Shown here in pieces: positions 3,602-20,851 of a stretch of 20,851 nucleotides of DNA. Position 1 is the stretch's first letter. Every line of letters starts with the position of its first letter. The notes beneath the pieces are model-generated. The model saw only the letters and a list, made by a program, of their open reading frames with translations, was not told where the DNA came from and did not search any database. Made by a program: the position numbers and the translations under genes. Source of the stretch: Alphaproteobacteria bacterium (GTDB lineage Bacteria; Pseudomonadota; Alphaproteobacteria; UBA828); the NCBI GenBank assembly GCA_965220745.1, contig CBDCQT010000001.1, positions 1-20,851 on the forward strand, written 5' to 3'.

Positions 3602-3604
3602 GGC

Positions 3605-3697: not shown

Positions 3698-3732
3698 GTC
3701 TCGCGAGACTGTCTCAGATACAGCACAGAGAC
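3698..3732. repeat. Cluster of GTCTC/GAGAC half-sites (probable protein-binding site)
   Basis: Perfect palindrome GTCTCGCGAGAC 3698-3709; imperfect TGTCTCAGATACA 3710-3722; GAGAC 3728-3732. Confidence 0.55.
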
Positions 3733-3754
3733 TCATCCCGACACGAATCGCGGC

Positions 3755-4141: not shown

Positions 4142-4332
4142 CGGACGACCCCATGGACCGGTCTCTCACCATCACCCTGCCCATTCCCCAGGTTTTCGCG
4201 CTCCTGGACCTGATCGGCGAGTCCCTCGCCAGCGCTCAGCCATCGTCAGCCACACCTCACAATGCCAGCGCCCTGCACTCCGCACGAGAGAACCTCGATA
4301 CCGCCATTCGGAGCCAACTCAATGACGGATGA
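4138..4332 (+). CDS. Small hypothetical protein (64 aa)
   Basis: ATGA overlap with the upstream gene, preceded by GAGGTG; overlaps the recombinase start by 11 nt. Confidence 0.55.
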   Translation: MTDDPMDRSLTITLPIPQVFALLDLIGESLASAQPSSATPHNASALHSARENLDTAIRSQLNDG

Positions 4333-5380
4333 CCCCGCCCCCCTTCCCTACAGCAACCACAACCAGCTCGCGCCCGTCGCGGACGCCGGCGACACGATTG
4401 AGCGGACCTCGGAGCCTCCGGTCCCGCTCCGCCCATCCCCGAACGCCCTTGTCCCCGCCCTCATCCACCAAGACGGCCCCGAGGCCTCCAAGCGCTACCT
4501 CGAGTTCTTCGCGGCGCAGCTCCGCAATCCCAACACGCGCGCGGCCTATGCCCGCGCCGCCGCCCGCTTCTTCGACTGGTGCCAGGACGCCGCCGGCGTC
4601 GACGCGCTCGCACGGATCGAGCCCATCCACGTCGCCGCCTGGATCGAGCGCCGCACAGCCGACGTCTCCGCCCCCACCGTCAAGCAGGAGCTCGCCGCTC
4701 TCCGCAAGCTGTTCGACTGGCTGGTCCTGCGCCAGGTCCTACCCTCCAGCCCTGCCGCCTACGTTCGAGGGCCCTCGCACAGCGTCAGGATCGGCAGCAC
4801 GCCCGTTCTTACCGTCGAACAGGCCCGCATCCTGCTCGCCAGCATTCCGGAGCACGCCCTCTCCGGCCAACGCGACCGCGCCCTGATCTCGCTGATGATC
4901 TATTCCTTCGCGCGGATCGGCGCGGCCCTCGCGCTCGACGTCGGCGACCTATTCCGCGAGCAGCACCGCCTTAACATCCGCCTGACCGAAAAAGGCGGCA
5001 AGCGTCACGTCATGCCCTGTCACCACACCCTCGATGCCCATCTGGTCTCCTACATGACGATCGCCGGCCTCGGCGCCGACGCCGGGGCTCCCCTCTTCCA
5101 GACCATGGCCCGCGATCGCCGCGCTCTCAGCGGCCGCCGCCTCAACCGGACCGAGGCCTGGTACATGGTCCGCCGGCGCGCCGCCGCCGCCGGCATCGAC
5201 ACGGCCGTGTCCTGCCACACGTTTCGCGGCACCGGCATCACCGCCTACCTGGAACACCCGGACGCCAAGCTCGAGGAAGCGCAGAAGATGGCTGCGCACA
5301 GCGATCCCAAGACCACGCGGCTCTACGACCGCCGCTCCCAGGCGGTCACGATCGACGACGTGGAGCGCATTCGCATCTAG
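4322..5380 (+). CDS. Tyrosine recombinase (plasmid resolvase/integrase type, about 352 aa)
   Basis: SAM-like N-domain (NPNTRAAYARA); catalytic R (FARIG), K (EKGGK), HxxR (HTFR), H (AAHSD) and Y (TTRLY). Start taken at ATG 4322, preceded by GGAG. Confidence 0.92.
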   Translation: MTDDPAPLPYSNHNQLAPVADAGDTIERTSEPPVPLRPSPNALVPALIHQDGPEASKRYLEFFAAQLRNPNTRAAYARAAARFFDWCQDAAGVDALARIEPIHVAAWIERRTADVSAPTVKQELAALRKLFDWLVLRQVLPSSPAAYVRGPSHSVRIGSTPVLTVEQARILLASIPEHALSGQRDRALISLMIYSFARIGAALALDVGDLFREQHRLNIRLTEKGGKRHVMPCHHTLDAHLVSYMTIAGLGADAGAPLFQTMARDRRALSGRRLNRTEAWYMVRRRAAAAGIDTAVSCHTFRGTGITAYLEHPDAKLEEAQKMAAHSDPKTTRLYDRRSQAVTIDDVERIRI

Positions 5381-6982: not shown

Positions 6983-7675
6983 ATGGCCGTCATATCCATC
7001 GCCAACCCCAAAGGCGGCACCGGCAAAACTACCACTGCTCTGCTCGTCGCCCTCGAGCTCTCCAAATCAGCGAGCGTCGCCATCATCGACGCCGATCCCA
7101 ACCGCATCGTTCACAAATGGGGCCAGGACAGGGAAGACGCCCGCAAGCCGGTGCCCCTCACCATTGCCCCGGCCCCCGAAGAATCCGAACTCATACACAC
7201 CATCACCACCCTCGCGCGCGAAAAGCAGTTCGTCCTCATCGACCTGGAAGGAACCGCATCCCGCACCGTCTCGCGCGCGTTCGCGCGATCCGACTTGGTC
7301 CTCATCCCCCTCAACCCCTCTCCCATCGACGCCCGCCAAGCGGCGGCCGCCGTGCGCCTGGTCCACGAGGAATCCGAGGTCCTGCAGCGAACCATTCCCT
7401 ACTGCCTTGCTTTCGTCAGGACCAATGCCGCCATCGTCACTCGGGATCAGGCCGCCATCCTGGCCGCTCTCGACGACGCCGACATTCCGGTCCTCAGCTC
7501 CGCCCTCATCGAGCGCGCCGCATACCGCGCCGTCTTCCGCGACGCCGCGCTGCTCGACGAACTCACACCTGAAGCCGTATCCGGCCTGGAAAAGGCCATC
7601 GCGAATGTTCACACCTTCACGGCCGAGCTCGTCGCCCTTCTCCGCTCCCTCCAACCCGAAAAGGCCGCCTCATGA
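6983..7675 (+). CDS. parA: ParA-family partition ATPase, short type Ib-like (230 aa)
   Basis: Deviant Walker A KGGTGKTT; IIDADPN; VLIDLEG; SDLVLIP; no N-terminal HTH. Confidence 0.92.
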   Translation: MAVISIANPKGGTGKTTTALLVALELSKSASVAIIDADPNRIVHKWGQDREDARKPVPLTIAPAPEESELIHTITTLAREKQFVLIDLEGTASRTVSRAFARSDLVLIPLNPSPIDARQAAAAVRLVHEESEVLQRTIPYCLAFVRTNAAIVTRDQAAILAALDDADIPVLSSALIERAAYRAVFRDAALLDELTPEAVSGLEKAIANVHTFTAELVALLRSLQPEKAAS

Positions 7676-8043
7676 CAAACAACAAATTCGGGTTCCCCGA
7701 CGCAAAGAACACCGACCCATCCGAAACATCGCCGACCACAGACCTCAGCGACTTCCAACCAGGCGAGCCCCACACGCCCGATCCCGAAACCGAAGCCAAA
7801 ATGGACCGCCGCGCCGCTGACGCCGGCTTCCCCCCGAGAACCGCCGGGAACACATCCACCGCCGACCGTCAGCAGCAGAGCGGCCACCGACGTCGGCGTC
7901 CCAAGGAGCCGGCAACGCAGCTCACCATGCACATCCCCCAACGTGTCGCCACGCGCTTCGCCAACTTCTGCGACGAGCACAGCTTCCCGTCCTACTGGTC
8001 GGCCCTCGAACACCTCATGAACAAAGCCAACGTCCCCGAATAA
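7672..8043 (+). CDS. ParA partner / stability determinant, probable C-terminal ribbon-helix-helix (123 aa)
   Basis: ATGA overlap with parA; disordered N-terminus with DLSDFQP and AGFPPR, basic RRRR patch, then strand-helix-helix QLTMHIP-QRVATRFANFC-SYWSALEHLM. Confidence 0.7.
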   Translation: MTNNKFGFPDAKNTDPSETSPTTDLSDFQPGEPHTPDPETEAKMDRRAADAGFPPRTAGNTSTADRQQQSGHRRRRPKEPATQLTMHIPQRVATRFANFCDEHSFPSYWSALEHLMNKANVPE

Positions 8044-8122: not shown

Positions 8123-8293
8123 ATGTGGCTCGAACCCGCCTGGACGCCCGAAACCGCTCAAATACGCTGTTCGCAGTGCGACGACGGAGAAGTCGTCTCC
8201 GCCCTCGACGACAGACTGCGGGAACCTTGCCCCAACTGCGACGGCTGCGGCTGGCTCAGGGAGATATCCGCGACTCACTGGCCACCTTTCTGA
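8123..8293 (+). CDS. Small Zn-finger protein (56 aa, below the ORF-track cutoff)
   Basis: MWLEPAWTPETAQIRCSQCDDGEVVSALDDRLREPCPNCDGCGWLREISATHWPPF*: CxxC...CxxCxGxG (DnaJ-like); weak SD (GGA); fills the gap before the terminator. Confidence 0.55.
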   Translation: MWLEPAWTPETAQIRCSQCDDGEVVSALDDRLREPCPNCDGCGWLREISATHWPPF

Positions 8294-8309
8294 CACCTTG
8301 GCCAGGCCC

Positions 8310-8336
8310 AAGAAAAAGGCCGCGCATCGCGCGGCC
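8310..8336 (-). terminator. Intrinsic terminator downstream of ssb
   Basis: Minus strand GGCCGCGC-GAT-GCGCGGCC (8336-8318) followed by TTTTTCTT. Confidence 0.8.
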
Positions 8337-8372
8337 CGAGTTTCAGGAAGGTAGCAGATCGACCAGAAGCGC

Positions 8373-8813
8373 TTACGCCGCCTGGTCCTCCGTCCCTGCG
8401 GCCTCCGCTTCCTCACCGTTCTCGGCTGCCGCCCCTGCAGCAGCTTCACCGTTCTCCTCCTCCTTCTTATCCAGAAAGGTGACCTTGCTCGACGGGATCA
8501 ACATGATCTCCGTCACCCTACGATCGGAGGTCTCCCCCTCCTTCCTGTAGGTCCGCGTCTGGAGCTTGCCCGACACGAAAACCAGCCGGCCCTTCTTCGC
8601 GTGCTTCTCCAGCATATCGACGAGGCCCTTCTGGAACGTCACAACGTCGTGCCACTCCGTCTGTTTGACCGGCTCCCCCTTCTGCTGATCGAAATAACTC
8701 TCGTCCGTCGCCACGCTGAGCCTGGCCACCCGGCCGCCGCCCTGGAAATGCTTGACCTCCGCGTCCTGACCCAGCCGGCCGATCACCTCCGCCCTGTTCA
8801 AACCATACGCCAT
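8373..8813 (-). CDS. ssb: Single-stranded DNA-binding protein (146 aa)
   Basis: LNRAEVIGRLGQDAE, LSVATDE, TEWHDVV and KKGRLVFVSGKLQTR OB-fold motifs; SD AAGGAG. Confidence 0.95.
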   Translation of the reverse strand: MAYGLNRAEVIGRLGQDAEVKHFQGGGRVARLSVATDESYFDQQKGEPVKQTEWHDVVTFQKGLVDMLEKHAKKGRLVFVSGKLQTRTYRKEGETSDRRVTEIMLIPSSKVTFLDKKEEENGEAAAGAAAENGEEAEAAGTEDQAA

Positions 8814-8907
8814 GATCCTCGCTCCTTTTCATCGTGGTTTTGCCGCAAGCACTCAACATTACTAAAGACGCAATACCGATTCCCCCCCACCAATACCTCC
8901 CCCGTTT

Positions 8908-9939
8908 TCAAAATAACTTCATGTACGCCATCTCCCTTTCCAATTCCTCCATTCGCTGAAGCGAACGCCGCTCCTTTTCATCCTTCCAGGGCACACGCCA
9001 CGGCGAAAACATGGCCACTTCGTTCGCTTTCACACTCAATTCGCGGCACTCCGCGCCGTCGGAACGCCAGACCTCGCGCACAACGCACTCGTCTTCCTCC
9101 GCCTTCCTGCCCGAGACCTTCCTTGCCATCACCTCCAGCTCCATCCGCACCACAACCGGCAGCTCCGGCCTCCATCCCTCCTCCTCATTCCTCGTGACAA
9201 TATCCAGCTCCCCAACGTCAACGAACCACGAGCGATCTCCCACCACCACGTCCGGCCCCCGCCGAAACCTGCGCCGCCGCCTGTACCCCGGAGGCACCGG
9301 CGGATACTGACGCTGAACCTCCGCATTCCGGAGCTTCTCATCGCTCCAAAGCGCCACCTCCACGTGCGGCTTCAAAATGCACTCACCACAAAGAGACGTC
9401 TTTACCGGCCCCTCACCACGCCCCCGCTTCCTAATAAGGCTGCTCGAATGCACCAGATCCCCGCGATAACACCACCCGCACCGGCCCGGCTGCTCCACAA
9501 CCGACTCGCTGGGCGGCCCGTCTCCCACATACGAAGTCCGGATTCTGTCCCCTGCCAAGAGAGGCTCTCCAAACTCCAACTTCCTGAACTCGAACCGAAC
9601 CCTTTGATCGCACAACCGCGCCAACTCCCCGCGAACCAGCTCACCGATCTTTCCGGCCTCCTCTTCCGGAATACCCACTCGCTCCCGCGACCGGCGCCAC
9701 GCCAGAAAAACAGAATTGTCGTCGACCAGAGCGTGTGCCCAAAACGAAACGGTATCGGTCTCGCACAGAACGCGCCGCACCTCCCGATCGAACCTGCAAT
9801 TATCTTCCGCCCACGACGTCCACTCCGCCACCAACGACAGCGGCACTTGCTGTTCCTCGGCGGCTTTCTCCAATTCGCCAAACCTCTGCTCCAACGACCT
9901 CGACTCCCTCAACAACCACTCCGGATCCGACCAGTCCAT
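8908..9939 (-). CDS. Hypothetical protein (343 aa) with a probable internal duplication
   Basis: SD GGAGGGAG; co-oriented with neighbours; protein-like composition; no family recognised. Confidence 0.7.
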   Translation of the reverse strand: MDWSDPEWLLRESRSLEQRFGELEKAAEEQQVPLSLVAEWTSWAEDNCRFDREVRRVLCETDTVSFWAHALVDDNSVFLAWRRSRERVGIPEEEAGKIGELVRGELARLCDQRVRFEFRKLEFGEPLLAGDRIRTSYVGDGPPSESVVEQPGRCGWCYRGDLVHSSSLIRKRGRGEGPVKTSLCGECILKPHVEVALWSDEKLRNAEVQRQYPPVPPGYRRRRRFRRGPDVVVGDRSWFVDVGELDIVTRNEEEGWRPELPVVVRMELEVMARKVSGRKAEEDECVVREVWRSDGAECRELSVKANEVAMFSPWRVPWKDEKERRSLQRMEELEREMAYMKLF

Positions 9940-9985
9940 TTGCTCCCTCCGGCAACAGCCCCGTTACCGATGAAACCGTTCCCTC

Positions 9986-12340
9986 TCACGCACACTTCGA
10001 GTAGCCGCACGAGAGACAGACGTCACAGCCTTCCTGGTAGACCACATCGGGCTGGCCGCATCGCACGCACAGCCTCGGCCGACGGCCCGTTTCCGCTCCG
10101 CCGCCCGTATCTCCGGCGCTCAGCACCACCTGCTCGCGCGCACCCACAGCGCCGATCGATACCAGGTGCTCCTCGATGACCATCCCGATCAGCGCGAGGA
10201 TCGACGGCACGTACTTGCCCTCGACCCACTGCCCGCCGCGCGGATCGAAGACGGCCTTCAGCTCCTCGACGATGAACGACACGTCGCCGCCCCTGCGGAA
10301 CACCGCGCTCATCATCCGCGTGAGCGCCACCGTCCAGGCGTAGTGCTCCATGTTCTTGGAATTGACGAAGATCTCGAAGGGCTGCCGCCTGCCGTCCCTC
10401 ACGATGTCGTTGATCGTGATGTAGATGGCGTGATCGCTCTCCGGCCAGCGGATCTTGTACGTGCTGCCCGGCAGCGCCTCCGGCCGCTCCAGCGCCCTCG
10501 TGAGGTGAACCACCGCCCCGGCCTCGAACTGGTCTTCGGGCATCGCCGGGGGCTTCTCGAGCGGCAGCTCGTCCTGCCTCACCGCCGGCAGCGTCTCCCG
10601 GCTCCCCTCCCGTTTTCGGCCTTCATCGCCGCCTTGCCGGCCACCGCCGGCGCTCTCCAGGACCGCCCCCGTCACCTCGTTCGGACGGTACGTCGTGCAG
10701 CCCTTGCAGCCGAGCTCGTAGGCCCGGAGATACACATCCCTGAAATCGTCGAACGCCATCTCCTCGGGACAGTTGATGGTCTTGGAGATGGAGCTGTCCA
10801 CGAACGCCTGCACGCGCGCCTGGACGGCCAGGTGATCCTCGGGTCCCAGGGACTGCACATCCACGAAATAGTCGGGCAGGAGCGCCGCATCGCCCTTCAG
10901 GCGCCGGAACAGCACATACGCATGATCCTCGACGGCCTCCGCCCTGCGGCTGCCGTCCGGCATCAGTACGTTCCGCGTGTACGAATAGCTGAACACCGGC
11001 TCGATGCCCGACGAGATGTTGCCCGCCAGCAGCGAGATCGTGCCGGTCGGCGCCACCGAGGTGAGCAGCGCGTTGCGGACCCCGGACGCCGCAATCGCCG
11101 CCTTCACGTCCTCGTCGAGCCCCCGTACCGTCGGGCTGCCGCAGTACCCGCCGGCGTCGTAGAGCGGAAACGCGCCCTTTTCCTCCGCGAGCGCCGCCGA
11201 GGCGAGATACGCCGCCCTCCGCAGCGTCGCCATCCAGCGCTCGACCAGGCTGTTCGCCGCGGCGCTTCCGTACCGCGCCCGGCACATGATCAGCGCGTCC
11301 GCCAGCCCCGTGATCCCCAGCCCGATCCGCCGCTTCGCCCAGGCCTCGGCCTTCTGCGCCTCGACCGGGAAGAGCGAGCACTCGATCGCGTTGTCGAGCA
11401 TCCGCACGGCCGTCCCGGCGAGCTGCTCGAGCGCGGCCGTGTCCAGCGCTGCACTCTCCTCGAAGGGATCGCACACCAGGCTCGCCAGGTTGATCGAGCC
11501 CAGGAGGCACGCGCCATAGGGCGGCAGCGGCTGTTCCGAACAGGGGTTGGTGGCGAAGATCTCCTCGCAGTAGGCGAGGTTGTTGGCCTGGTTGATGCGG
11601 TCGATGAAGATCACCCCAGGCTCCGCATACGCATAGGTCGAGCGGACGATCTTCTCCCACAACTCCCGCGCCGAGATCGTCTTGAAGACCACACCACCGA
11701 ACGCGAGCTCCCACGCGCCGTTCTCCCTCACGGCCTGCATGAAGGCATCCGTCACCAGCACCGAGAGGTTGAACATGCGCAGCCGCCCCGGATCGCGCTT
11801 GGCCTCGATGAAGGCTTCGATGTCAGGATGATCGCAGCGAAGGCACCCCATCATGGCGCCGCGGCGAAAGCCCGCGCTCATGATCGTCCTGCACATCGAG
11901 TCCCAGCAGTCCATGAAGGGAAGCGGCCCCGACGCATCGGCGCCCACGCCCTTCACGACGGCCCCCTTGGGCCGGAGCGTGGAGAAGTCGTAGCCGATCC
12001 CGCCGCCCTGCTGCATCGTCAGAGCCGCTTCCTTCAGGTGCTCGAAGATCGACGACATGTCGTCCTCGATCCGGCCCATGACGAAACAATTAAAGAGTGT
12101 CACCTGGCGGTCCGCGCCGGCGCCGGCGAGGATGCGTCCCGCCGGCAGGAACCTGAATCCCTCCAGCGCCTCGTAGAACACCCGCTCCCAGCGCTCCGGC
12201 TCCGCCTCGGGCTTCGCCAGGGCGCGCGCCACCCGGCGCCACGTATCCTCGATCGTGCCGTCTACAGGGTTCCCGCCCGCATCCTTGAGACGATATTTCA
12301 TGTCCCAGATGCGGGACGAGATCGGCAGCATCTCGGTCAT
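9986..12340 (-). CDS. nrdJ: Class II adenosylcobalamin-dependent ribonucleotide reductase with C-terminal TSCPD-like domain and Zn ribbon (784 aa)
   Basis: FLPAGRI, TLFNCFV, GGGIGYDFS, RRGAMM, EPGVIFIDRIN, ATNPCSEQPL, ACLLGSINL, RRIGLGITG, APTGTIS, SISKTIN, KGCTTYR and terminal CxxC...CxxCGYSKCA; ATG 12340 with SD GAGGGGG. Confidence 0.95.
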   Translation of the reverse strand: MTEMLPISSRIWDMKYRLKDAGGNPVDGTIEDTWRRVARALAKPEAEPERWERVFYEALEGFRFLPAGRILAGAGADRQVTLFNCFVMGRIEDDMSSIFEHLKEAALTMQQGGGIGYDFSTLRPKGAVVKGVGADASGPLPFMDCWDSMCRTIMSAGFRRGAMMGCLRCDHPDIEAFIEAKRDPGRLRMFNLSVLVTDAFMQAVRENGAWELAFGGVVFKTISARELWEKIVRSTYAYAEPGVIFIDRINQANNLAYCEEIFATNPCSEQPLPPYGACLLGSINLASLVCDPFEESAALDTAALEQLAGTAVRMLDNAIECSLFPVEAQKAEAWAKRRIGLGITGLADALIMCRARYGSAAANSLVERWMATLRRAAYLASAALAEEKGAFPLYDAGGYCGSPTVRGLDEDVKAAIAASGVRNALLTSVAPTGTISLLAGNISSGIEPVFSYSYTRNVLMPDGSRRAEAVEDHAYVLFRRLKGDAALLPDYFVDVQSLGPEDHLAVQARVQAFVDSSISKTINCPEEMAFDDFRDVYLRAYELGCKGCTTYRPNEVTGAVLESAGGGRQGGDEGRKREGSRETLPAVRQDELPLEKPPAMPEDQFEAGAVVHLTRALERPEALPGSTYKIRWPESDHAIYITINDIVRDGRRQPFEIFVNSKNMEHYAWTVALTRMMSAVFRRGGDVSFIVEELKAVFDPRGGQWVEGKYVPSILALIGMVIEEHLVSIGAVGAREQVVLSAGDTGGGAETGRRPRLCVRCGQPDVVYQEGCDVCLSCGYSKCA

Positions 12341-12546
12341 CGCCGCCCCCTCACGAAGCCCACCGAGCCTGACCCTGCGAATGACGAAAACTCTTCGCGA
12401 TCGCCCCCCGTCTGGTACGGCACGCCCTCGTCGCAAAACGTGCAGACCGAGGGGTCTGCAACCGACCAGCTGCAGGGCTCCCCCCACTCGTCCACACAAG
12501 GCAACTCCTCCGTGCAGCCGCAAATCCGACAAGTTCCACCGCTCAT
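12337..12546 (-). CDS. Small Cys-rich (probable Zn-binding) protein (69 aa)
   Basis: MSGGTCRICGCTEELPCVDEWGEPCSWSVADPSVCTFC... with 7 Cys; SD AAGGAG; stop overlaps the nrdJ start (ATGA). Confidence 0.75.
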   Translation of the reverse strand: MSGGTCRICGCTEELPCVDEWGEPCSWSVADPSVCTFCDEGVPYQTGGDREEFSSFAGSGSVGFVRGRR

Positions 12547-12587
12547 CCTCGCCTCTCCTTCCTGACCTCCCGCAGGCAGACCGCCGT

Positions 12588-13814
12588 TCAACGCTGCGAC
12601 GCCCGGCGCACCTGCTCGACCGACTTCCTCACGTCGACCACGCACGAGTAAGACGAGCCGTCCCGGTACGCCTTCTGCACGCAGCCCACGATCGTCTCCC
12701 CGTAATTGGCCCACACGTGGTCGTGCCACCCGCCCGTCGAATCCTCGATCGGCAGCACCTTCCACTCCTGTTCCACGAAAGCGCCGGCCACCACGCAGAC
12801 CGGCGCCGCCACCGCCAGGCCCACGATCACCGCCCAGCGATGCGGCCCGCCCACCGACTTGATCCGCCTGTTCAAATCGCTGGAGTAGGCCATCAGCCGA
12901 TCGTTCAAAACCTCAATGCCTTCACCCACCTTCGCGACGGCATCGATATTTCCGTAGCTCTTCTCAATTACGTTTACGCTGTCCTCTACCCGCTTCCCCA
13001 CCTCACGCGTCGCCGTCTCCACCTTCTTCAACGTCGACCCGACCAGGTCGGCCTGCCTCGCGATGTCCTTTTGCACCTTCTCGAGCGCGTCCCCCTCGCC
13101 CCCTTTCGACGAAGCAGCTTTCAAGCCTTCCACCACCTCCACTAACGCCACGAGCTGACCCTCCACCCGCCCCAGCCCGGCCCGAACCTCCTCGTCCACC
13201 ACGGGGGCTGCCGCGGCCGGCGCAGGCGGCTTTTGCTCGCGACCCGACGCCGCCTCATCGGTTCCCTCCGGTGTCCCCCCTCCGCCGAGCTTTCCGCCAT
13301 CCTCGCGGCCCTGCTCCGCCCCGGGCCCACTTGCCTTCGTCTGCCCCGCGAACGGTATGCTCTCCACCTTTCCCTGTTTTCCGGCCCCTGCCGGCTGCCC
13401 CGCTCCGTTCGCCCCTGCCAACTCCTCCCGCTTGTCCGATCCGCCTTCCTTCACCGTGTCGCCCCTATCCGCCGCTCCTGCCCCGCCCGGACTTCCTTCC
13501 GAAACGTCCACCCTGCCCTCTCCCCCCTCTCCGTCCTCGGCCTCGCCCGCGCTATCGCTCTCGCCGGCCTCCTCGGCATTTTCCTCACCGCCGCCTTCCG
13601 AGCCCTCAAGCCCGTCCTCCACAGGCACCTCCACGACCGCCTCTTCCTCGGCCTCCCACTGCTGAGGATCCCATCCGTCCAACGCCCCCTGGAACTCAAA
13701 CCCCTCTGCCTCGACCGACTTCCCGGCCCTGCCCGGTTTTCCCGGCTCCGCCTTGCTGTCCGCCATCGGCCCGTCTGCCTTGCCGGCCGCGACTTGCCGT
13801 TCCCTGTCCGCCAC
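12588..13814 (-). CDS. Membrane-anchored protein: acidic disordered N-half, coiled coil, one TM helix, C-terminal Cys pair (DUF6118-like; 408 aa)
   Basis: GTG 4 nt after the virD4 stop; TM WAVIVGLAVAAPVCVVAGAFV; tail NYGETIVGCVQKAYRDGSSYSCVVDV recalls DUF6118 (recognised from memory, unverified). Confidence 0.7.
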   Translation of the reverse strand: MADRERQVAAGKADGPMADSKAEPGKPGRAGKSVEAEGFEFQGALDGWDPQQWEAEEEAVVEVPVEDGLEGSEGGGEENAEEAGESDSAGEAEDGEGGEGRVDVSEGSPGGAGAADRGDTVKEGGSDKREELAGANGAGQPAGAGKQGKVESIPFAGQTKASGPGAEQGREDGGKLGGGGTPEGTDEAASGREQKPPAPAAAAPVVDEEVRAGLGRVEGQLVALVEVVEGLKAASSKGGEGDALEKVQKDIARQADLVGSTLKKVETATREVGKRVEDSVNVIEKSYGNIDAVAKVGEGIEVLNDRLMAYSSDLNRRIKSVGGPHRWAVIVGLAVAAPVCVVAGAFVEQEWKVLPIEDSTGGWHDHVWANYGETIVGCVQKAYRDGSSYSCVVDVRKSVEQVRRASQR

Positions 13815-13818
13815 AGCG

Positions 13819-15774
13819 TCACTCCGCTCCCGCCGCGTCAGGCAGCGCCGGCCCCCTGCCGGCGCCTTTCCTCAACACGAAGGGGTTGGGGTCCCACAGC
13901 CCGCGCGTGCGCCGGTGTTCCCAATAGAGCGTGTGATCGAGGGCAATCGGGTCCCTCGGCATGCCCTTCGGCCGCGCGATCACGAACTGCTTGTTGGCCG
14001 GCAGGGTCATGAGCTCGTCCGGGGTCACCAGGTGCTCCCGCACGAGGGAGCGCGTTTCCCCCGCCTGCGAGGACGTCTTCGACGCAAGAAGCTGCGCATC
14101 CGCCATCCGCCCCGACGTGTTCTCGGACTGCGCCTCGAAGGTCGCCGTTCCGATCGCCTTCGAGACGTCCTCGGCCTGGCTCGTATTCGACCTGGAGAAC
14201 CCCAGGTACTGGACCACCTCGGCCAGATCGATCAGCGTCTTGCGGCTTTCCTCGCCCCACGTCTCGTCGAGGGTCGACACCGACTGCGCGAACGACCAGA
14301 AATGCACCCCCCGCCCGGCAGCCATGTTGTAGCCGTCCATCACGGGCTGCAGGTAACCCAGCATCGGCATCTCATCCATGATCACCAAAAGGTCCCGCTC
14401 GAACGGCCTCCGGCTCGACAGCGCGTTCGGAATCGTGATCCAGAGCCGCATCCACGCCCGCACCTTCGACAGCATCGTCTCCGGCACCACGACGAACAGA
14501 TCCGTGTTCCCGTCTGTCAGCACCGCAGGATCGAAGGTCGACGACCCCATCGACTCCTTCATCGAGTCCATCGTGATGAACGACATCTGGTTCGCGATGC
14601 TCGAGAAATTCGACCCCCGCTCGTCCTCGCCCACCTGCAGCTGCCGCTCCACCGCATCGTGGGCCAGACCGCCCGCGAAGCGGTCGCTCTCCACCACCTG
14701 CTTCTCGAACTGCTCCCTCTCCTTCGCCGGCAGCATCAGCAGGCGCTGGACCTCCGCCATCGTCCGCTCGTTCTCCGGCGCCTTGAACCGCACCCACGCC
14801 ATGTACCCGGCGATGATCGCCCGCGCAGACTCGTAGAAATGCTGCGCATTCGACTGGGACCGCGACGACGGCGGGGTCAGCAGCCCGTCGAGCAGCACGT
14901 AGATGTCCTCCACCGCGTAGCGCTCGTCCTCGCGCACGAACCCGAGCGGGTTGAACGTCTCGCTCCGCGTCCAGGGAACGTGCAGCCCGGGCACGTTGTT
15001 TCCGTGCTCCTTGACCACGTCGAACGGATCCAGCAGCAGCACCCGGCGTCCCAGCTCCCGCCGGCGACGCGCGACCACGCAGAAGATCTCGCCGCGAGGG
15101 TCGAACAGCACCGTCGATCCCGGCCAGCCCCGCTCGTCCGGCGACAGCAGGTTCATCGCGATCGTCGTCCCCTTGCCGGAGCGCGGCGGCGCGAACGAGA
15201 TGGCGGACCCCTCCAGGTCCCAGGCGATCAGCGGCGCGGACCGGCCCTCGCCCCACTGTCCGAGCACGATGCCCCGCTTGCGCGCGAGCTGCGCCATGAA
15301 GCGCTTGTCCAGGAAATTGGCCTTGCCGTAGAGATCCGACTCCGCGCGCCGGCGGCGGCGGCCCTTGTCCAGCGAGCGCAGCCAGAACAGCGCGACTTCC
15401 GCCCACACCAGGCAGGCCAGCACCGCGCCTACGCTCGACGCCACCATCACCACCAGGTCGACCAGACGCCCCTGCGACAGCCGCGCCACCACGGCATCGA
15501 TCGATCCCGTCGCCAGCACCGGCTGGAACACCTCGATCCACGCCGCTCCGCCGAGCGCCGCCGCCGCGCCGGCGAACGTGCCCAGGCGCAGCCCCATCGT
15601 CCTCTTGCTCCGGCCCGTCCCCAGAAACACGCCGAACAGCGCGCAGAGCGCGGCCGACACCGCCACGAGCACCAGCGAGGGCGCCGGCACCGTCCACACC
15701 ATCCACACGCACGCACCCGCGCCCAGACCCGACAGGCCTACGCCCAGCGCCACGTTCCACCACAGCCTGGACAT
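13819..15774 (-). CDS. virD4: Type IV coupling protein, VirD4/TraG family (651 aa)
   Basis: N-terminal TM helices; LYGKANF; Walker A APPRSGKGT; FDPRGE; LLDPF; FNPL; Walker B VIMDEMPMLG; AQSVSTLDETWG; LVTPDELM. Confidence 0.92.
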   Translation of the reverse strand: MSRLWWNVALGVGLSGLGAGACVWMVWTVPAPSLVLVAVSAALCALFGVFLGTGRSKRTMGLRLGTFAGAAAALGGAAWIEVFQPVLATGSIDAVVARLSQGRLVDLVVMVASSVGAVLACLVWAEVALFWLRSLDKGRRRRRAESDLYGKANFLDKRFMAQLARKRGIVLGQWGEGRSAPLIAWDLEGSAISFAPPRSGKGTTIAMNLLSPDERGWPGSTVLFDPRGEIFCVVARRRRELGRRVLLLDPFDVVKEHGNNVPGLHVPWTRSETFNPLGFVREDERYAVEDIYVLLDGLLTPPSSRSQSNAQHFYESARAIIAGYMAWVRFKAPENERTMAEVQRLLMLPAKEREQFEKQVVESDRFAGGLAHDAVERQLQVGEDERGSNFSSIANQMSFITMDSMKESMGSSTFDPAVLTDGNTDLFVVVPETMLSKVRAWMRLWITIPNALSSRRPFERDLLVIMDEMPMLGYLQPVMDGYNMAAGRGVHFWSFAQSVSTLDETWGEESRKTLIDLAEVVQYLGFSRSNTSQAEDVSKAIGTATFEAQSENTSGRMADAQLLASKTSSQAGETRSLVREHLVTPDELMTLPANKQFVIARPKGMPRDPIALDHTLYWEHRRTRGLWDPNPFVLRKGAGRGPALPDAAGAE

Positions 15775-15788
15775 TGCCGCCCCTCCCC

Positions 15789-18152
15789 CTACCGGCCGAG
15801 GCGCATCGCCGCGAGGCGGCCCACGCCGGACGTGATTCCGCCCATCGTGCCCTCCGCGCCGCCGCCGCCCGAACCGCGTCCGCCGATCCACTCCAGCACC
15901 ACCGAAGGCAGCACGTCGATCAGCTTGAAGGCCCCGTTCATCAGCGCGTAGCAGATGAACACGTAGACGACGACCATGGTCAGGAAGCCCACCACCCCGA
16001 TGCCCACGAGGTCATCAGCGTCCCGCAGGTACGGCACGAACACGCCGTTCAGCACCGTGATTCCGGCCACGAACACCCAATAGCCGAGCACGAAGCCGAA
16101 CAGCATCAGCGCCGGCCGAAGCAGCAGTCCCGGCAGGAACAGCCAGCCCTGCCTGGTCACGCTCGTCATGAGCTGGTTGCCTTCGCCGCGCGTCACGTGC
16201 GCGGCCGCAAAGACCGTGACCGCGAGAAACGCCTCGACCACGCTCATCAGCCACGCCAGAATTCCGAACAGGAAGCGCACGAACGGGATCAGCGGCAGCA
16301 CGAAGGTGAGCACCACGCCTGCGATCAGCAGGATTCCCAACACCATGTTGACGAACGCGCCGCCTACGTCCCACACGGCTCTTGCCCCTTCGGCGAATGC
16401 CTCCGCCGAATCTCCGAACAGCGGCACCCACGCCACACTCACCACGGCGGCGTTTGTCGCCGCCGTCGCCGCCAGCAACCCGGTATAGGTCCCGAGCGCC
16501 GCGGCGATCAGGCTCGAGCCGAACGACGCCAACTCGCCGATCGGATTCAGCGCCCGCCCGAACCCGTCCCCCGCAACGAATACGCTCTCCAGGTCCAGCA
16601 GGCCGAACAGCGCTCCCCCCAGCCCCTCCTTCGTGCCGGTCAGCCCCGGCAGCGACCCCGCCATGCCCTGCTCGCCCAGCCGCAAATGGCTCGGCCGATA
16701 CGTCCCGCCCCGCTCCAGGTGCTGCACCAGCACCCCCACGGAACGCGTCACCAGATCGTGCCTCTTCTGCAGCTGCTCATAGTTCGGCGGCACCACGTCC
16801 GGCACCCCGTAAGAGACCGAATGAAAGCTCCCCGTCCGGTACGCGATCGTGTTGATGAAGCTCGCCGCAGCGAGCCACTCCACGTCCCGCTCCATGTCGT
16901 CCAGCCTGGTCCTCCGGTCTTCCGTCTCTACCCGCGCGGCTTCGCCGAGCTGCTCCTCCAGGTACCCGAGGTAGCCGCGCCCCACCGGCTCAAGCAGCGC
17001 GTCCAAGTCCGGCAGTCCCGGGGACTCCCGCGCCTCCCCGCCCACACCCACCTCGATCAGCCCCGTCAGCTGCGGCTGGATCTGCGCCGCGATGCTCTCC
17101 AGCTCCTGCAGCACGGTGCGGTCGCCCACCACCCCCGCGTCGGCGAAGGCCCGGTAATGCGCGTTTCCCGCAAGGATTCTCGACGCGCTGCCGTCCCCCG
17201 GCTCACCCACGTCGCCCAGCCCCAGCTGATCGTCGTCCACGTCCCGGAAGCGGATCGCGCCGCACAGGTTGGGCGTCGTCCAGCCGTGGTAGCCGAAGCT
17301 GATCGTGCCGTCGCCCGACTCCCGTCCCCGCGTGATGAACGTCTGGCCCTCCCGGCGCCGGCCCCCCTTGATGTCCTTCTCCTCCACGACCGCATTCGCC
17401 ACCGCCCTGCAGGTCTCCACCACCAGCGCCCGTGCGATCGCCGAGCGCCACAACTCGTTGTTCGGCAACGGCACCGCCGCCTCCGACTCGCCCAGCATGT
17501 CGTCCGAAAAGGGCTGCCAGATGGTGTTCGCGAAATCCCCGCCGACGCGCGCGAGTCCCAGCACGATGTGCTGGCCCCCGTTCATGCCGCCCGGCGGCAG
17601 CGGCACCATCAGCCCGACCGCGATCACCAGCCGCAACACCTCCCAGCCGCCGAAGCCCCAACGGCCTTCGCGCGCCGTCGCCACCGTGCCTGCGATCGTG
17701 TGGTAGACCAGCAGGAAGCCCGCCAGCACGAGCACGCCCCCGTTGAACACGTAGAGCATGTCCGCCAGCGCAGCCGGCCCCTGGCCGCCCCCTCCCGGCC
17801 GGAAGCCGTTCAGGAAATCGAGGATCGACCGCGTCGACTGCGAGGTCTCCTCGAACGGATCGAGCTCCGTAAAATCGAAGGGGAGTGGGTCGGACTGCGC
17901 CTCGGCCTCGCCCGATATCAGCCCGCTTGCACCGAACGCGGCAAACCCCGCCCCCGTGCCCGCCAGCGTCGCCCCCAGGCAGGCCGGAAGCCGGGCCGAG
18001 GGCTCCCGAAGCCGCGACCAGCGCCACTCGCCCTTCGGCGGCCGAGCGAAGGCGGCACCGCACAGCCCCTTGATCCGGCCGGCCGCGCTCCGCAGCTCGC
18101 GCAGCGAGCGGCCAAACTCGGGGAGAAAGAGGAGCCGGAGAAGGCTTGTCAT
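15789..18152 (-). CDS. traY: DotA/TraY-family integral membrane conjugation protein (787 aa)
   Basis: N-terminal TMs with TAREGRWG...LRLVIAVGLMVP; large soluble region; C-terminal TMs with LPLIPFVRF, LLRPALMLFG and FKLIDVLPSVVLEWIG. Confidence 0.9.
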   Translation of the reverse strand: MTSLLRLLFLPEFGRSLRELRSAAGRIKGLCGAAFARPPKGEWRWSRLREPSARLPACLGATLAGTGAGFAAFGASGLISGEAEAQSDPLPFDFTELDPFEETSQSTRSILDFLNGFRPGGGGQGPAALADMLYVFNGGVLVLAGFLLVYHTIAGTVATAREGRWGFGGWEVLRLVIAVGLMVPLPPGGMNGGQHIVLGLARVGGDFANTIWQPFSDDMLGESEAAVPLPNNELWRSAIARALVVETCRAVANAVVEEKDIKGGRRREGQTFITRGRESGDGTISFGYHGWTTPNLCGAIRFRDVDDDQLGLGDVGEPGDGSASRILAGNAHYRAFADAGVVGDRTVLQELESIAAQIQPQLTGLIEVGVGGEARESPGLPDLDALLEPVGRGYLGYLEEQLGEAARVETEDRRTRLDDMERDVEWLAAASFINTIAYRTGSFHSVSYGVPDVVPPNYEQLQKRHDLVTRSVGVLVQHLERGGTYRPSHLRLGEQGMAGSLPGLTGTKEGLGGALFGLLDLESVFVAGDGFGRALNPIGELASFGSSLIAAALGTYTGLLAATAATNAAVVSVAWVPLFGDSAEAFAEGARAVWDVGGAFVNMVLGILLIAGVVLTFVLPLIPFVRFLFGILAWLMSVVEAFLAVTVFAAAHVTRGEGNQLMTSVTRQGWLFLPGLLLRPALMLFGFVLGYWVFVAGITVLNGVFVPYLRDADDLVGIGVVGFLTMVVVYVFICYALMNGAFKLIDVLPSVVLEWIGGRGSGGGGAEGTMGGITSGVGRLAAMRLGR

Positions 18153-18173
18153 GGGACTTCGCGCTGCCGCGGG

Positions 18174-19301
18174 CTAGAACAGCCCACCCCTCGCGCGCTC
18201 GAGCGCCAGCGCGAGCGACGTCGCGTCCATCGCGCCCCTCCGCTCCGCCAGGCGATAGCCTTCCCACTCCAGCATCAGCCCGATCGCCTGGAGCGTGACC
18301 AATTCGCGCAGCAGGTTCGCCTCGCTCATGCCCTGCAGCCCGACGAACCAATTCGGGTCCTCGAAGCGCCGGCTGGCGAGGATCTCCAGGAGTTCGTACC
18401 GGCTCAGCCCCTCGCCGGCGCGTCCCGCTTCGCCGGGCACCAGCTGCGCGACCCAACCGCCGAGCGCCGCCCCCGGATAGCGCATGCTCCGCGCGTGGCT
18501 CATGAAATCGGCGCCGAGCGCCGTCCTTGCATCCAGAGAGCGGACATAGAGCGCCCTGGACTTCTCCCGCTCCGTGCCCGCCGTCACGAACGGCGGATGG
18601 CCGAACACGACGGGCGCCGCCAGGTTGCGCGACACTTCCACGGCCGTCTCCAGCTCCTCCCGGGTCTTGAAGGTCCGCGTCTCGAGCAGGTTGCCGGGCT
18701 TCAGGTCGGCCCCGTGCGCCTCAGCCGACCCCGTGCAGACCTGCTCGCTCTGGCCGCCCCGCCCCGCATGGCAGTACTTGCTCAGCACCGACTCGAACCT
18801 GGCCTCGTTGTTCGCGCCGCCGACTGCCGAGACCGAGCCCCGGTCGCCGATCACGCGCCCGCCTTCCAGCCTCTCCGCTTCCTCGCCGGCGTTCTCCGCC
18901 GCCCGGCGGCTGTCCCCCAGGCCGCTCAGCCCCGTGATCGTGTCGCACGCGGTCTCCGCCGGCCGGTGCTCCCGCACGCTCCGCGTCTCCTCCACCTCCC
19001 GCGCGATCTGCGCAATGAGCTGGGTCTGCGCGTCCAGCGCCTGCGTCGTCGTCTTCGCGTTCTGGGCGATGTAGCCCGAGACCTGCCCCGTGGTGAGCCG
19101 CAGCGCCTCCACGATGTTGGCTTCCATCACGTCCAGGCGCTGCTTCACCCCGCGCAGCACCCGGCTCGCCTCCGCCCGGTCGTTGTCCGTGGGGTCGCAC
19201 TTGGACCTGCCGAACAGCGCGTGCGCGTCGCCGGCAGCCCCGGCCGTCAGGATCGCCGCCAGCGCAACGCCGCAAACGCTCAGCCACAGCCTGCGCATCA
19301 C
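18174..19301 (-). CDS. traW: TraW-like exported conjugation protein, IncI/MPF-I type (375 aa)
   Basis: Signal peptide; C-terminal SRYELLEILASRRFEDPNWFVGLQ...LLRELVTLQA resembles IncI TraW; position between traU and traY. Confidence 0.65.
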   Translation of the reverse strand: MMRRLWLSVCGVALAAILTAGAAGDAHALFGRSKCDPTDNDRAEASRVLRGVKQRLDVMEANIVEALRLTTGQVSGYIAQNAKTTTQALDAQTQLIAQIAREVEETRSVREHRPAETACDTITGLSGLGDSRRAAENAGEEAERLEGGRVIGDRGSVSAVGGANNEARFESVLSKYCHAGRGGQSEQVCTGSAEAHGADLKPGNLLETRTFKTREELETAVEVSRNLAAPVVFGHPPFVTAGTEREKSRALYVRSLDARTALGADFMSHARSMRYPGAALGGWVAQLVPGEAGRAGEGLSRYELLEILASRRFEDPNWFVGLQGMSEANLLRELVTLQAIGLMLEWEGYRLAERRGAMDATSLALALERARGGLF

Positions 19302-19302
19302 C

Positions 19303-19821
19303 CTACTCCCCGCCCAGCGAGTTCCGGTAATTCTCGAGATTCACGTCGAGGTCGCCGCCCCGCACCGGCTCCCGCAGGAAGTGTCGGCGCCGCGTGTCCA
19401 CCTCCACGCCGGGCAGGCGCTCCAGGTCCCAGGCCAGTGCGCTCGTATCCAGCGACCGGCCCACGTATCCCCGGTAGGCGTTCCGCGCCACCGTGCAGAC
19501 CTGCCGCTCGAGCAGTCCCATCAGATCCTGCATGGACGCTCCCGGATCGTAGAAGACGTCGAACCCTCCGAAATCGAACAGCTCCTCCAGGCACGACAAA
19601 TCCAGGATCGAATCCGGACTCCTGATCCCCTGGTCCGGGTCCCGGATGATCGCGAGGTCCCCCTGCACGCCGGCGGTCGCGCTCTCCATCAGGCCCTTCC
19701 GGATCTCCGGATCGCAGGCCTCGTCGCCGGCGTCCTGGGCTGCCGCATCCTTGATCCCTGCCGACGAAGCGATTCCCGCCGCCATCACGACCGCACACGC
19801 CCATCCGCCCACCCTCGTCAC
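19303..19821 (-). CDS. Exported Cys-containing conjugation protein, possibly TraL-like (172 aa)
   Basis: GTG 19821 overlaps the traU stop (GTGA); signal peptide ending DAAA-Q; three Cys in the mature part including LLERQVCTVAR. Confidence 0.65.
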   Translation of the reverse strand: MTRVGGWACAVVMAAGIASSAGIKDAAAQDAGDEACDPEIRKGLMESATAGVQGDLAIIRDPDQGIRSPDSILDLSCLEELFDFGGFDVFYDPGASMQDLMGLLERQVCTVARNAYRGYVGRSLDTSALAWDLERLPGVEVDTRRRHFLREPVRGGDLDVNLENYRNSLGGE

Positions 19822-20851
19822 AATCCCGCCTCCGCCGCTTGTGCCGCCCCACTCGCAACCAACTCCGCCGCCATGCGGTCCAGCACCGAGCGCTCCGACG
19901 CTCCCTCTCCGGCGTCGCCGGCGACGCGCAGCTCGCGCTCGATCCGCTCCCGCGCCGACCCCGCAGGGAACTGCCGCGCCAGCACCTGCCGCGCGTGCGC
20001 CGGCGCCAGGCGGTCGTACAGTCGCTCGCGCAGCGCCACGTCGCGCGGCGCCGTGGTCAGCGCCCAGAGCTCCGCCGGCCCCGGCCCGTTGACCACCACC
20101 TGCTCGAACCGTCCGCCCCGGTCCGACGCGATCAGCAGCGCCGGCGCGCCGCGCTCGCCCGGCCCCGTCAGCTCGAACCTGATCGCCTGCTGCAGCGTCG
20201 CCGAGAGCGAGAACAGCGACGACAGCGTCTCGACCTCGCGATCCTTGCCGCCGGCGCCCAGCACCCAGTAGCGGTTGGCGAGCTCGGTCAGCGCCTCGCC
20301 GAAATCCTCGATCCTCTGCGACGCCAGGCAGAGTTGCACCCTGAGCTTCCTCGCCTCGCGCACGTCCCTCTCGACCTGCGCCCGCACCGCGTCCGCGCCG
20401 CCTGTCCGGTGAAACTCGTCGAACGCCAGCCGCTTCGGCGTCTCCCTGATCTCCCGCAGACGCTCCACGTGATAGCCGCGGTATCGCTCCGGGATCCGCG
20501 CCGCAGCCTCCGGGCCGATCCACCAGTGCCGTGTGAGCGCGTGCCGCGCCAGCATGTAGACCGCCGCCGTCTGCCGGTCGCCCTCGGCCGAGCCGTGCGG
20601 CGCGACGTCACCCAGGTCGACTGCCGCCACGCGCGCGCGGCCGATATCGAACGCCGTCGGGTGCGCCATGATCGGCCACGCCTCCAGGGCCGCCGTCACC
20701 AGCCTGAGAAAGGCCTCCGTCACCGTCTCGCCGCCGCTTCCGAACTGCGTGTGCCGGACCAGGCCCTGCACCCGCTCGTGACGCGCGGCCGACACGAAAT
20801 CCCGCAGCACCGGCACCGCATAGCGCTGCGCCCGCTCCGCGATCCCCGGCT
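19818..20851 (-). CDS. traU: IcmB/DotO/TraU VirB4-like ATPase, C-terminal part (5' end outside the window)
   Basis: Frame open to the window edge (AQRYAVPVL); PTAFDIG, DRQTAAVYMLAR, Walker B LAFDEFHRT, REARK and LASQRIEDF. Confidence 0.88.
   Translation of the reverse strand, partial: PGIAERAQRYAVPVLRDFVSAARHERVQGLVRHTQFGSGGETVTEAFLRLVTAALEAWPIMAHPTAFDIGRARVAAVDLGDVAPHGSAEGDRQTAAVYMLARHALTRHWWIGPEAAARIPERYRGYHVERLREIRETPKRLAFDEFHRTGGADAVRAQVERDVREARKLRVQLCLASQRIEDFGEALTELANRYWVLGAGGKDREVETLSSLFSLSATLQQAIRFELTGPGERGAPALLIASDRGGRFEQVVVNGPGPAELWALTTAPRDVALRERLYDRLAPAHARQVLARQFPAGSARERIERELRVAGDAGEGASERSVLDRMAAELVASGAAQAAEAGL

Follow-up and report, generated by a model that had tools for sequence, protein, structure and literature searches.

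This report concerns a 20,851-bp stretch of DNA (hereafter the window) from Alphaproteobacteria bacterium (UBA828; GCA_965220745.1, contig CBDCQT010000001.1, positions 1–20,851, forward strand). It makes up the entire contig C1 (67.6% GC) of a host genome, G000, of 13 contigs and 4.8 Mb. At the distal end of a run of conjugation genes stand nrdJ, encoding a class II adenosylcobalamin-dependent ribonucleotide reductase (RNR), and ssb, encoding SSB, a protein that binds single-stranded DNA. We propose that this nrdJ was captured from a member of the host genus, is transcribed at the tail of a tra operon and aids conjugative DNA synthesis, a reading whose chance we put at about even.

Organization of the conjugation gene run

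The right two thirds of the window hold ten co-oriented minus-strand genes, from a traU-like gene to ssb. A preliminary description made from the DNA letters had placed ten such genes here, and the open reading frame (ORF) coordinates bear this out:

19818–20849, minus strand: traU-position gene, C-terminal 343 codons, 5′ end cut by the contig end
19303–19806, minus strand: small ORF at the traV position, start codon uncertain
18174–19301, minus strand: traW-like gene (weak match to NF033888 conj_TraW, E 1.1e-6, 28 bits where the cut-off is 100)
15789–18152, minus strand: traY, DotA/TraY family, type IVB secretion (TIGR04346, 217 bits, cut-off 100)
13819–15774, minus strand: virD4, VirD4/TraG-type coupling protein (PF02534, 147 bits; PF12696; PF10412)
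12588–13814, minus strand: orf408, 408 aa, N-terminal part acidic and of low complexity, C-terminal part conserved
12337–12546, minus strand: cys69, 69-aa Cys-rich zinc-ribbon-like ORF, overlapping the nrdJ start
9986–12340, minus strand: nrdJ, 784 aa (TIGR02504, PF02867, PF00317, PF12637)
8908–9939, minus strand: orf343, 343 aa, free-standing homologue of the C-terminal domain of TrwC-family relaxases
8373–8813, minus strand: ssb, mobile-element type (PF00436, 80.9 bits; TIGR00621, 100.9 bits)
8307–8337, minus strand: intrinsic terminator, closing the run and convergent with a parA-orf123-orf56 unit

Eight junctions, recomputed from the ORF coordinates, measure 1, 21, 14, 4, 41, −4, 46 and 94 nt and match the distances given earlier; the junction ahead of these eight, the first of the run (−4), hinges on the start codon chosen for the ORF at 19303. 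The cys69 stop and the nrdJ start overlap as ATGA, an arrangement expected to couple their translation, and a purine run resembling a Shine-Dalgarno sequence precedes the start of each of cys69, nrdJ, orf343 and ssb. Third-position GC is high in all large genes of the run (0.74–0.92). No insertion sequence (IS) or integrase flanks nrdJ directly, as had been observed before; an IS21 pair and a tyrosine recombinase lie beyond ssb and parA.

The earlier observation that a terminator occurs only after ssb also holds. At 8337–8317 a 9-bp stem with 8 G-C pairs runs into a T-run, TTTTTCTT; it lies 36 nt past the ssb stop and is the sole strong minus-strand terminator within 8300–20851. Its position alone is notable, the number of terminator-like sites in the scan being unremarkable (4 observed, 6.0 expected in shuffles). 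Sigma-70-like promoters numbered zero against 0.7 expected, a result that is uninformative at 67% GC. An Rfam scan of the window at gathering thresholds returned no family and hence no riboswitch.

A related element with the same gene order

When one genome per species was scanned with the window VirD4 protein, a search that recovers close relatives only, a single locus came up, L069, on a 39.7-kb contig (C120) of the metagenome-assembled genome (MAG) G044. It repeats the window order virD4 > unknown ORF > Cys-rich ORF > nrdJ > ssb, with junctions of −4, 20, 0 and 34–61 nt across this part; orf343 is absent. Amino acid identities between the two elements are 98% for the traU-position gene, 98.5% for the next ORF (over 137 aa; 45–56% to paralogues in relatives), 92% for traW, 73.5% for traY, 75% for virD4, 38% for the long unknown ORF (C-terminus only), 68% for the Cys-rich ORF, 81% for nrdJ and 55% for ssb. 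The tight or overlapping junctions in both elements, together with the single terminator, fit one transcript with virD4 and the tra genes, and co-transcription of nrdJ and ssb with them is likely as far as gene layout can tell.

At the DNA level the two elements are 94–100% identical over 20851–19052 and 64–89% elsewhere. The boundary of this mosaic is sharp, with high identity from traU to the 5′ part of traW and then a drop. Such mosaic identity points to recent exchange of a segment between diverged elements, while the linkage of nrdJ would be older.

Besides the genes shared with the window, the L069 contig encodes DotH/IcmK (PF12293, 126 bits), gives weak matches to TraO, DotG and TraQ, and carries thin-pilus genes for the PilQ ATPase, the PilS pilin and the N-terminal domain of the PilV shufflon; the match to the PilN secretin is weak (25.1 bits, under the cut-off of 27.5). 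Because of these DotH/IcmK, DotG/TraO-like and TraQ-like genes and the thin pilus, the system can be classed as IncI/Dot-Icm-like, and gene content marks the window as a fragment of a conjugative plasmid of this kind (type IVB, mating-pair formation type MPF_I). The homologue of the traU-position gene in L069 follows TraQ, as in the IncI order, and the window gene shares 66% identity with the C-terminal end of a paralogue of 1045 aa on contig C13 of the host. The name traU is based only on homology to this paralogue and on IncI gene order; Pfam, NCBIfam and PDB gave no match, and the 5′ remainder of the gene was not found elsewhere in the host assembly. The ORF at 19303–19806 and orf408, previously labelled ‘TraL-like’ and ‘DUF6118-like’, have no match in Pfam, NCBIfam or PHROGs even at E<=5, and we dropped both labels.

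Sequence features of NrdJ

NrdJ scores 560 bits with TIGR02504 (cut-off 399.95) and 392 bits with PF02867 (cut-off 23.9). A TSCPD domain (PF12637) occupies residues 628–726 and is followed by a Cys-rich C-terminal tail with CVRCG at 758 and CDVCLSCG at 772; domain and tail are said to mediate re-reduction. In an alignment, residues C85, N265, C267, E269 and C278, which comprise the active-site Cys pair, the thiyl-radical Cys and the finger-loop Asn and Glu, fall on the motifs LSAC, NPCGE and ACNLGS of NrdJ from Thermotoga maritima (1xje/1xjk), so that the retention of catalytic motifs noted earlier is upheld, with a Gly-to-Ser change in NPCGE. Among 382 columns that are invariant in 28 chromosomal copies of the host family, the window protein keeps 376 and that of L069 keeps 371, and the changes are mostly conservative; in a leave-one-out comparison, chromosomal copies of the same genus deviate at 0–2 such columns. 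Both element proteins share the derived residues K205R, M613L, T664M and A717L. Together these features show an enzyme that looks functional.

Origin and spread of the element nrdJ

The host genome encodes three class II enzymes, namely the window copy, a 791-aa copy on contig C5 (82% identical) and a 1233-aa long form on C12; neither a class I small subunit nor a class III enzyme was found in it. The C5 gene is set among housekeeping genes (an argH-like lyase, a lysA-like decarboxylase, DUF2125 and dus) and has an upstream region of about 860 nt. The element copy lacks this region: DNA similarity between element and chromosomal nrdJ spans exactly the ORF, from start codon to stop codon (12340–9986). 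A short NrdJ (E<=1e-100) is present in 36 of 44 genomes of the host family. Two intact short copies occur in G000 only, that is, in one of 44 genomes of the family and one of 49 of the order; two nrdJ fragments on separate contigs of a further genome (G012) were read as one split gene.

In four genomes of the host family (G026, G030, G037 and G020) the chromosomal short nrdJ lies in an open frame of 1176–1189 aa, and the match is split at about residue 268, at NPCGE; each was counted as a single gene. This is consistent with an intein, and database relatives of similar length carry intein and homing-endonuclease Pfam domains.

The preliminary description had proposed a phylogeny to tell a mobile-element clade from a host-like copy, and the outcome is a mobile-element clade that arises from a chromosomal copy of the host genus. 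In a 33-row maximum-likelihood tree, from which L059 (partial) and L068 (intein-split) were left out, the window copy is sister to that of L069 (100/100), and both lie inside the chromosomal clade of the same genus (nodes 95/95 and 100/99). Their branches are long: the stem measures 0.15 and the tips 0.16 and 0.24, when the median tip is 0.06. The approximately unbiased (AU) test rejected a genus clade without the element copies (p=0.017; the group was defined once the tree was already known). Nine NrdJ clusters that came from a database search are 84–91% identical to the window copy, compared with about 82% for chromosomal copies. The derived residues R205, L613 and L717 are found in 17 cluster representatives of a 5.8-billion-protein database, and in a 52-row quick tree these 17 rows form one clade (Shimodaira–Hasegawa-like approximate likelihood-ratio support 100, stem 0.22) nested in the genus clade.

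Crude Nei-Gojobori estimates gave a dN/dS of 0.23 for the two element copies, 0.15–0.24 for element against chromosomal copies and 0.14–0.23 for chromosomal pairs. Judged by its codons, the element nrdJ is intact and under purifying selection. Since the element values resemble the chromosomal ones, the long branches would reflect more change overall and not relaxed constraint. The dS is 0.81 between the window copy and the host's own nrdJ, and 0.56 for the pair of element copies. A recent origin by duplication of the host gene was ruled out by the former value and by the position of the host copy in a different subclade.

As the element clade is nested within the chromosomal NrdJ clade of the genus, the simplest reading is that nrdJ was captured once from a bacterium of the host genus and then diversified and spread on mobile DNA. 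This spread apparently crosses orders. The MAG that holds L069 lies outside the host order, being absent from the 49 genomes of that order and having a family of its own with 37 others; its element copy is its sole short NrdJ, and the copies proper to its family are at most 63% identical to that of the window. Assignment of L069 to this host carries the reservation that plasmid contigs can be mis-binned.

Coupling-protein loci of the same genus

The window virD4 is 49–54% identical to homologues of the same genus (full-length matches). Five of ten such loci read traU > small SSB-like gene > ORF > traW > traY > virD4 > orf408 C-terminal domain, one keeps this order but has no SSB-like gene, and in four just virD4 and the orf408 C-terminal domain are seen. 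Downstream, three have a convergent TrwC relaxase and others enter IS elements or chromosomal genes. Compared with these loci, nrdJ-ssb sits at a variable position just beyond the coupling-protein operon.

The small gene between the traU-position gene and the next ORF (L075, L076, L077, L080, L081 and C13:687187–687519 of the host) encodes a second, distant SSB-like protein with an oligonucleotide-binding fold, 34–39% identical to the window SSB. The C13 copy has a very long acidic tail (357 aa). The window element is without this gene.

The host genome as a whole is rich in conjugative elements. It has about 16 matches to TrwC relaxases (C3, C5, C10, C12 and C13), two further types of type IV coupling protein and 4–6 element-type copies of ssb.

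Neighbours of nrdJ and the left third of the window

The conserved C-terminal part of orf408, about 100 aa with a hydrophobic helix, recurs immediately behind virD4 in 8 of 10 loci from relatives and also on contig C10. All 7 Cys of cys69 are kept in L069. The cys69 motif, CR(I/M)CGCTE..C..(G)..C.W......C..C, belongs to a small zinc-ribbon module that is widespread in metagenomes and has no Pfam family. It was found in 72 metagenome loci (L086–L157), none with the window arrangement. In four of ten loci examined the motif is fused or adjacent to ParB_N proteins, and prophage-like contexts occur too; fusions to either end of ParB_N/HTH_ParB proteins are seen in L087, L089 and L093, an adjacent pair in L086, and the module also stands alone. 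A role of cys69 as an RNR accessory was ruled out, as none of the 72 loci has nrdJ or virD4 (tblastn, 1e-5).

Over 336 aa the orf343 product shares 38% identity (E 5e-46) with residues 1494–1818 of a 1843-aa TrwC relaxase encoded on C12 of the host (141767–147298; locus L178:3768–9299, minus strand). The GC content of orf343 is lower than that of its neighbours. A profile search of 1.84 billion representatives returned 31 relatives, and all eight long ones align along the 1843-aa relaxase. The family is thus rare, its members either standing alone (about 270–376 aa) or forming the end of relaxases some 1800 aa long. In the relaxase copy, the CxxC pairs seen in the free-standing form are not conserved. 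Five database homologues have 55–72% identity. Four of these are on contigs of 129,156, 16,170, 442,481 and 114,450 bp, sizes that match contigs with element-type NrdJ, and from the equal sizes we infer that the two genes are co-located. An AlphaFold2 model of orf343 from a 6-sequence alignment (mean predicted local distance difference 53, predicted template-modelling score 0.39) was too poor for a fold search. Matches of its profile to thioredoxin in the PDB (E 0.36–0.79) were rejected as chance, the region being predicted all-helical and having no CxxC. PHROGs and the ESM Atlas gave nothing usable for cys69, orf343 or orf408, and a scan of viral_contigs with the orf343 profile found no relative.

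The window SSB is 60–62% identical to other element SSBs of the host genome and 34.5% to the chromosomal SSB, and it groups with the mobile-element SSBs of the genus, apart from the chromosomal one. A tree built to judge orthology between the SSBs of the two elements left 7 of 10 inner branches open.

Genes in the left third are mostly on the plus strand:

303–1901 and 1727–2674: istA and istB of the IS21 pair
3434–4141: weak match to a plasmid-replication protein
4262–5380: tyrosine recombinase
left third of the window: Phd/PIN toxin-antitoxin pair and a SEC-C/TPR protein
6983–7675: parA, encoding ParA, followed by two small ORFs, 7672–8043 (orf123) and 8123–8293 (plus strand; orf56, a 56-aa zinc-ribbon ORF)

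The 56-aa ORF, with CxxC...CxxCxxC, lies 3′ of parA-orf123 and ends 79 nt from the ssb stop. One hairpin is common to the ssb run and the parA-orf123-orf56 unit and probably terminates both.

nrdJ on other plasmids

Plasmid records were surveyed for comparison, 12 being picked for size and diversity among 40 listed of 861 that match NrdJ. In three, Cupriavidus pauculus unnamed1, Burkholderia vietnamiensis pBVIE01 and Methylibium RPME01, nrdJ lies among tra genes, so that RNRs near such genes are less exceptional than first described. In five, nrdJ is part of a same-strand run of DNA-processing or establishment-type genes:

Sulfuricystis pSTJ2: RecT, ssb, toprim, nrdJ, ArdC, RadC
Piscinibacter plasmid: nrdJ, toprim, DUF932, then a MobH relaxase
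Pseudomonas aeruginosa pF061_2: two orphan methylases, nrdJ, toprim
Methylosinus pMSC49b: DUF3991-TOPRIM, UvrD helicase, truncated nrdJ
Phaeobacter pS26_106: protelomerase, ssb, nrdJ, dnaB

The context is unclear in one record (Massilia) and cargo-like or chromosome-like in three. A full-text literature search found no paper discussing RNRs in tra operons or leading regions.

Proposed role of the module

According to our model, the plasmid lineage descends from an ancestor that picked up a single intact nrdJ from the chromosome of a bacterium of the host genus. The gene now stands at the distal end of the transfer and coupling-protein operon, with a mobile zinc-ribbon gene upstream and a plasmid-type ssb downstream. 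As the tail of the virD4/tra transcript, nrdJ and ssb would be made whenever the element readies itself for transfer, and NrdJ would raise the local supply of deoxynucleoside triphosphates (dNTPs) while SSB coats the displaced or incoming single strand. Because the element copy is without the upstream region of about 860 nt, its expression would escape the control of the chromosomal copy. NrdJ is a single polypeptide that should need only adenosylcobalamin and a thiol reductant, both already supplied by the hosts; such a single-gene class II enzyme is the only kind in the genus and would also be the most portable kind. The suggestion that the gene links transfer to B12 availability adds nothing here: the host has class II reductases only, and since it is wholly B12-dependent for dNTPs the element brings no new cofactor dependence.

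Several observations weigh against this model. nrdJ is missing from all ten virD4 loci of the same genus (within about 9 kb) and from the C10 paralogue locus (L007), which indicates that the gene is dispensable for such transfer systems. No relaxase or oriT was seen in the window, where Pfam and NCBIfam scans of the proteins gave no relaxase family, or on the 39.7-kb L069 contig, which has no TrwC match; both contigs are incomplete. Internal promoters could lie inside orf408 or in the 46-nt and 94-nt spacers. The module stands at the border between transfer and maintenance genes (parA, the rep-like gene, the toxin-antitoxin pair), where cargo also gathers, and genomic context has been seen for just two of the 17 members of the element NrdJ clade. 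In the enzyme itself, the window reads NPCSE, with Ser for the family-invariant Gly of NPCGE. The window SSB ends in ...GTEDQAA and lacks the acidic C-terminal tip in ..(I/L)PF by which partner proteins are normally recruited, while five other element-type SSBs (one an N-terminally cut fragment) end in ITF, LPF or IPF and the chromosomal SSB in DDDIPF. Codons just past the window ssb stop read ALLVDLLPS and may be a remnant of a PF-type tail.

Conjugation is usually described as wholly reliant on the nucleotide supply of the host. The captured nrdJ and the unremarked parallels in unrelated plasmids suggest that plasmid transfer or establishment, much as phage replication, can be limited by the supply of dNTPs, and that certain plasmids may, as many phages do, provide DNA precursors of their own. 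Were this so, nucleotide metabolism would join the functions carried by plasmids to further their spread. The case is one of a housekeeping reductase recruited from the chromosome into a transfer operon and kept under selection through a divergence of dS 0.56, and it offers a clean, dated capture from chromosome to plasmid with precise ORF boundaries. The survey also hints that plasmid-borne class II reductases are commoner than the literature reflects.

Alternative readings

The module might act in the recipient instead. In that case nrdJ, orf343 and ssb would belong to a leading region, among the first genes expressed after entry, and dNTP pools would be raised for complementary-strand synthesis or against dNTP-depleting defences, not in the service of the donor. 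ssb is a hallmark of plasmid leading regions (F, IncI1), and the window SSB is of the plasmid type; however, Pfam, NCBIfam and PHROGs gave no anti-restriction or anti-SOS family for the run, and the window and the L069 contig show no oriT or relaxase nearby. The leading region of IncI1 lies beyond the coupling-protein end of the tra block, a position like that of the module, and on other plasmids nrdJ stands in same-strand runs of establishment-type genes. In the window, though, the module follows virD4 closely, like the tail of an operon. The spacers ahead of ssb, orf343 and cys69 show no unusual single-strand hairpins such as Frpo/ssi-like promoters would have, their folding being no stronger than that of shuffled sequence (z +1.0, +0.8, −1.1, −0.15), and the L069 spacers there measure just 20–61 nt. 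Taking these points together, we regard a leading-region module as unlikely.

It is likewise improbable, in our estimate, that nrdJ is plain cargo, an extra or alternative reductase that benefits the host by dosage or by supplying a short NrdJ and has no role in transfer. Plasmid reductases that serve a host trait exist, for example nrdDG of pHG1 in the passages cited (PMC2864759), and in three of the 12 plasmid records nrdJ lies among transporters, housekeeping or integrase/IS genes; in eight, from unrelated plasmid lineages, it lies among tra or DNA-processing genes. A need for the gene could be argued for G044, which has no separate chromosomal short NrdJ, as is true of 29 of the 37 family genomes searched (E<=1e-100), but G000 already has two chromosomal class II enzymes. 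The module adjoins maintenance genes, yet the start/stop overlap with a mobile-element gene ties nrdJ into the operon, and this coupling is kept in a diverged element. Moreover, the element lineage is old, with dS 0.56 between elements, and still constrained.

We consider it a long shot that NrdJ, SSB and the orf343 product are delivered as proteins, together with the DNA, into the recipient by the type IVB machine. If so, orf343 or a similar signal may be recognised by the coupling protein encoded just upstream, and NrdJ may raise dNTPs on arrival, again for complementary-strand synthesis or against dNTP-depleting defences. Class II RNRs would then be a recurrent, unrecognised establishment function of environmental plasmids. 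Leads in this direction, as distinct from evidence, are that an F-type type IV secretion system (T4SS) translocates SSB, as stated in the passages cited (PMC8406263), and that E. coli NrdE was translocated through an F-type T4SS in a screen, as far as the cited part of that report goes (PMC11288057). Further leads of the same standing are the homology of orf343 to a relaxase C-terminal domain and the four of five orf343 homologues that apparently lie on NrdJ contigs.

Finally, the integrity of the assembly was considered, as a one-off or chimeric contig had been named as a risk at the outset. The stretch 8300–16000 is present in sponge-metagenome runs of two other studies (word shares 0.74 and 0.50). 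Metagenome contigs bridge three junctions: orf343-nrdJ (X5 record 10, 9105–10348), nrdJ-cys69-orf408 (X6 record 17, 11900–12746, with 12 differences) and orf408-virD4 (X5 record 13, 13341–14936). Joints between metagenome contigs and the window all had sides of at most 29 letters, with two exceptions, and all were disregarded as spurious or diverged variants. Logan contigs of X1 and X5 end at 12289–12311, where similarity to the chromosomal paralogue starts and where a de Bruijn graph is expected to branch. As judged from these contigs and from L069, the arrangement is neither a chimera nor a one-off. A misjoin of a chromosomal nrdJ to plasmid sequence, for which the breaks in X1 and X5, the shortness of the window contig and the absence of its other T4SS genes from the assembly could be cited, is extremely improbable in view of the X6 contig that spans the break point, the identical gene order of L069, the DNA identity of only 79.5% to the chromosomal copy and the separate clade of the element nrdJ.

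X1 is the sample that best covers the window. Its record 7, a 14.6-kb contig at about four times the depth, covers 18916–20851 with 53 differences. The end of the window contig inside the traU-position gene is probably due to a second related element in this sample.

Comparison with known systems

Phage RNRs, reportedly surveyed by Dwivedi et al. in 2013, are likewise carried by mobile elements, presumably for their own dNTPs, and are often single-gene class II enzymes with ssb or replication genes next to them, an arrangement like that of Phaeobacter pS26_106. The window differs in that a conjugative type IVB plasmid is the carrier, the gene sits in the transfer operon, and the trees demonstrate its descent from a chromosome of the host genus.

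Among conjugative plasmids, IncI1 R64 and ColIb-P9 resemble the window system in the thin pilus, the tra order and an ssb beyond the coupling-protein end; in R64 the thin-pilus genes are followed by traN/O/Q/U/W/Y, with ssb beyond the coupling-protein end of the tra block. The window system differs in its VirD4/TraG-type coupling protein, in having an RNR and in its high-GC Alphaproteobacteria hosts; no nikAB-type relaxase or oriT was seen in it, and no psiB or ardA. The betaproteobacterial MPF_F megaplasmids (pBVIE01, RPME01 and C. pauculus unnamed1) have an annotated nrdJ whose neighbours, at most a few kb away, include TraN, a lytic transglycosylase, a T4SS ATPase and TraG/TraH, and our literature search found no paper discussing it. 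Their NrdJ is only 37–39% identical to that of the window, the T4SS is F-like, and nrdJ forms a short unit of its own, not a co-oriented operon tail, with no adjacent ssb.

Plasmid-borne like the window gene, nrdDG of pHG1 is needed for anaerobic growth of C. eutrophus H16; it is a class III enzyme and a cargo trait for the host, without a link to transfer genes in the passages cited (PMC2864759). The closest counterpart on a conjugative element is nrdB of the integrative and conjugative element ICEAcaSM.3 of A. caldus, which is also closely related to the chromosomal copy of its host. In the cited part of their paper (PMC3826726), its authors state that they found no reports of RNRs on non-phage mobile elements, and speculate on dNTP supply. 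That nrdB is a class Ia small subunit among accessory genes and needs the NrdA of the host. The window, by comparison, has a complete single-subunit class II enzyme in what is likely a tra operon and with a long element-borne history. Mobile-element RNRs as a kind were already known; what the present one adds is an unusually clear origin and integration into an operon.

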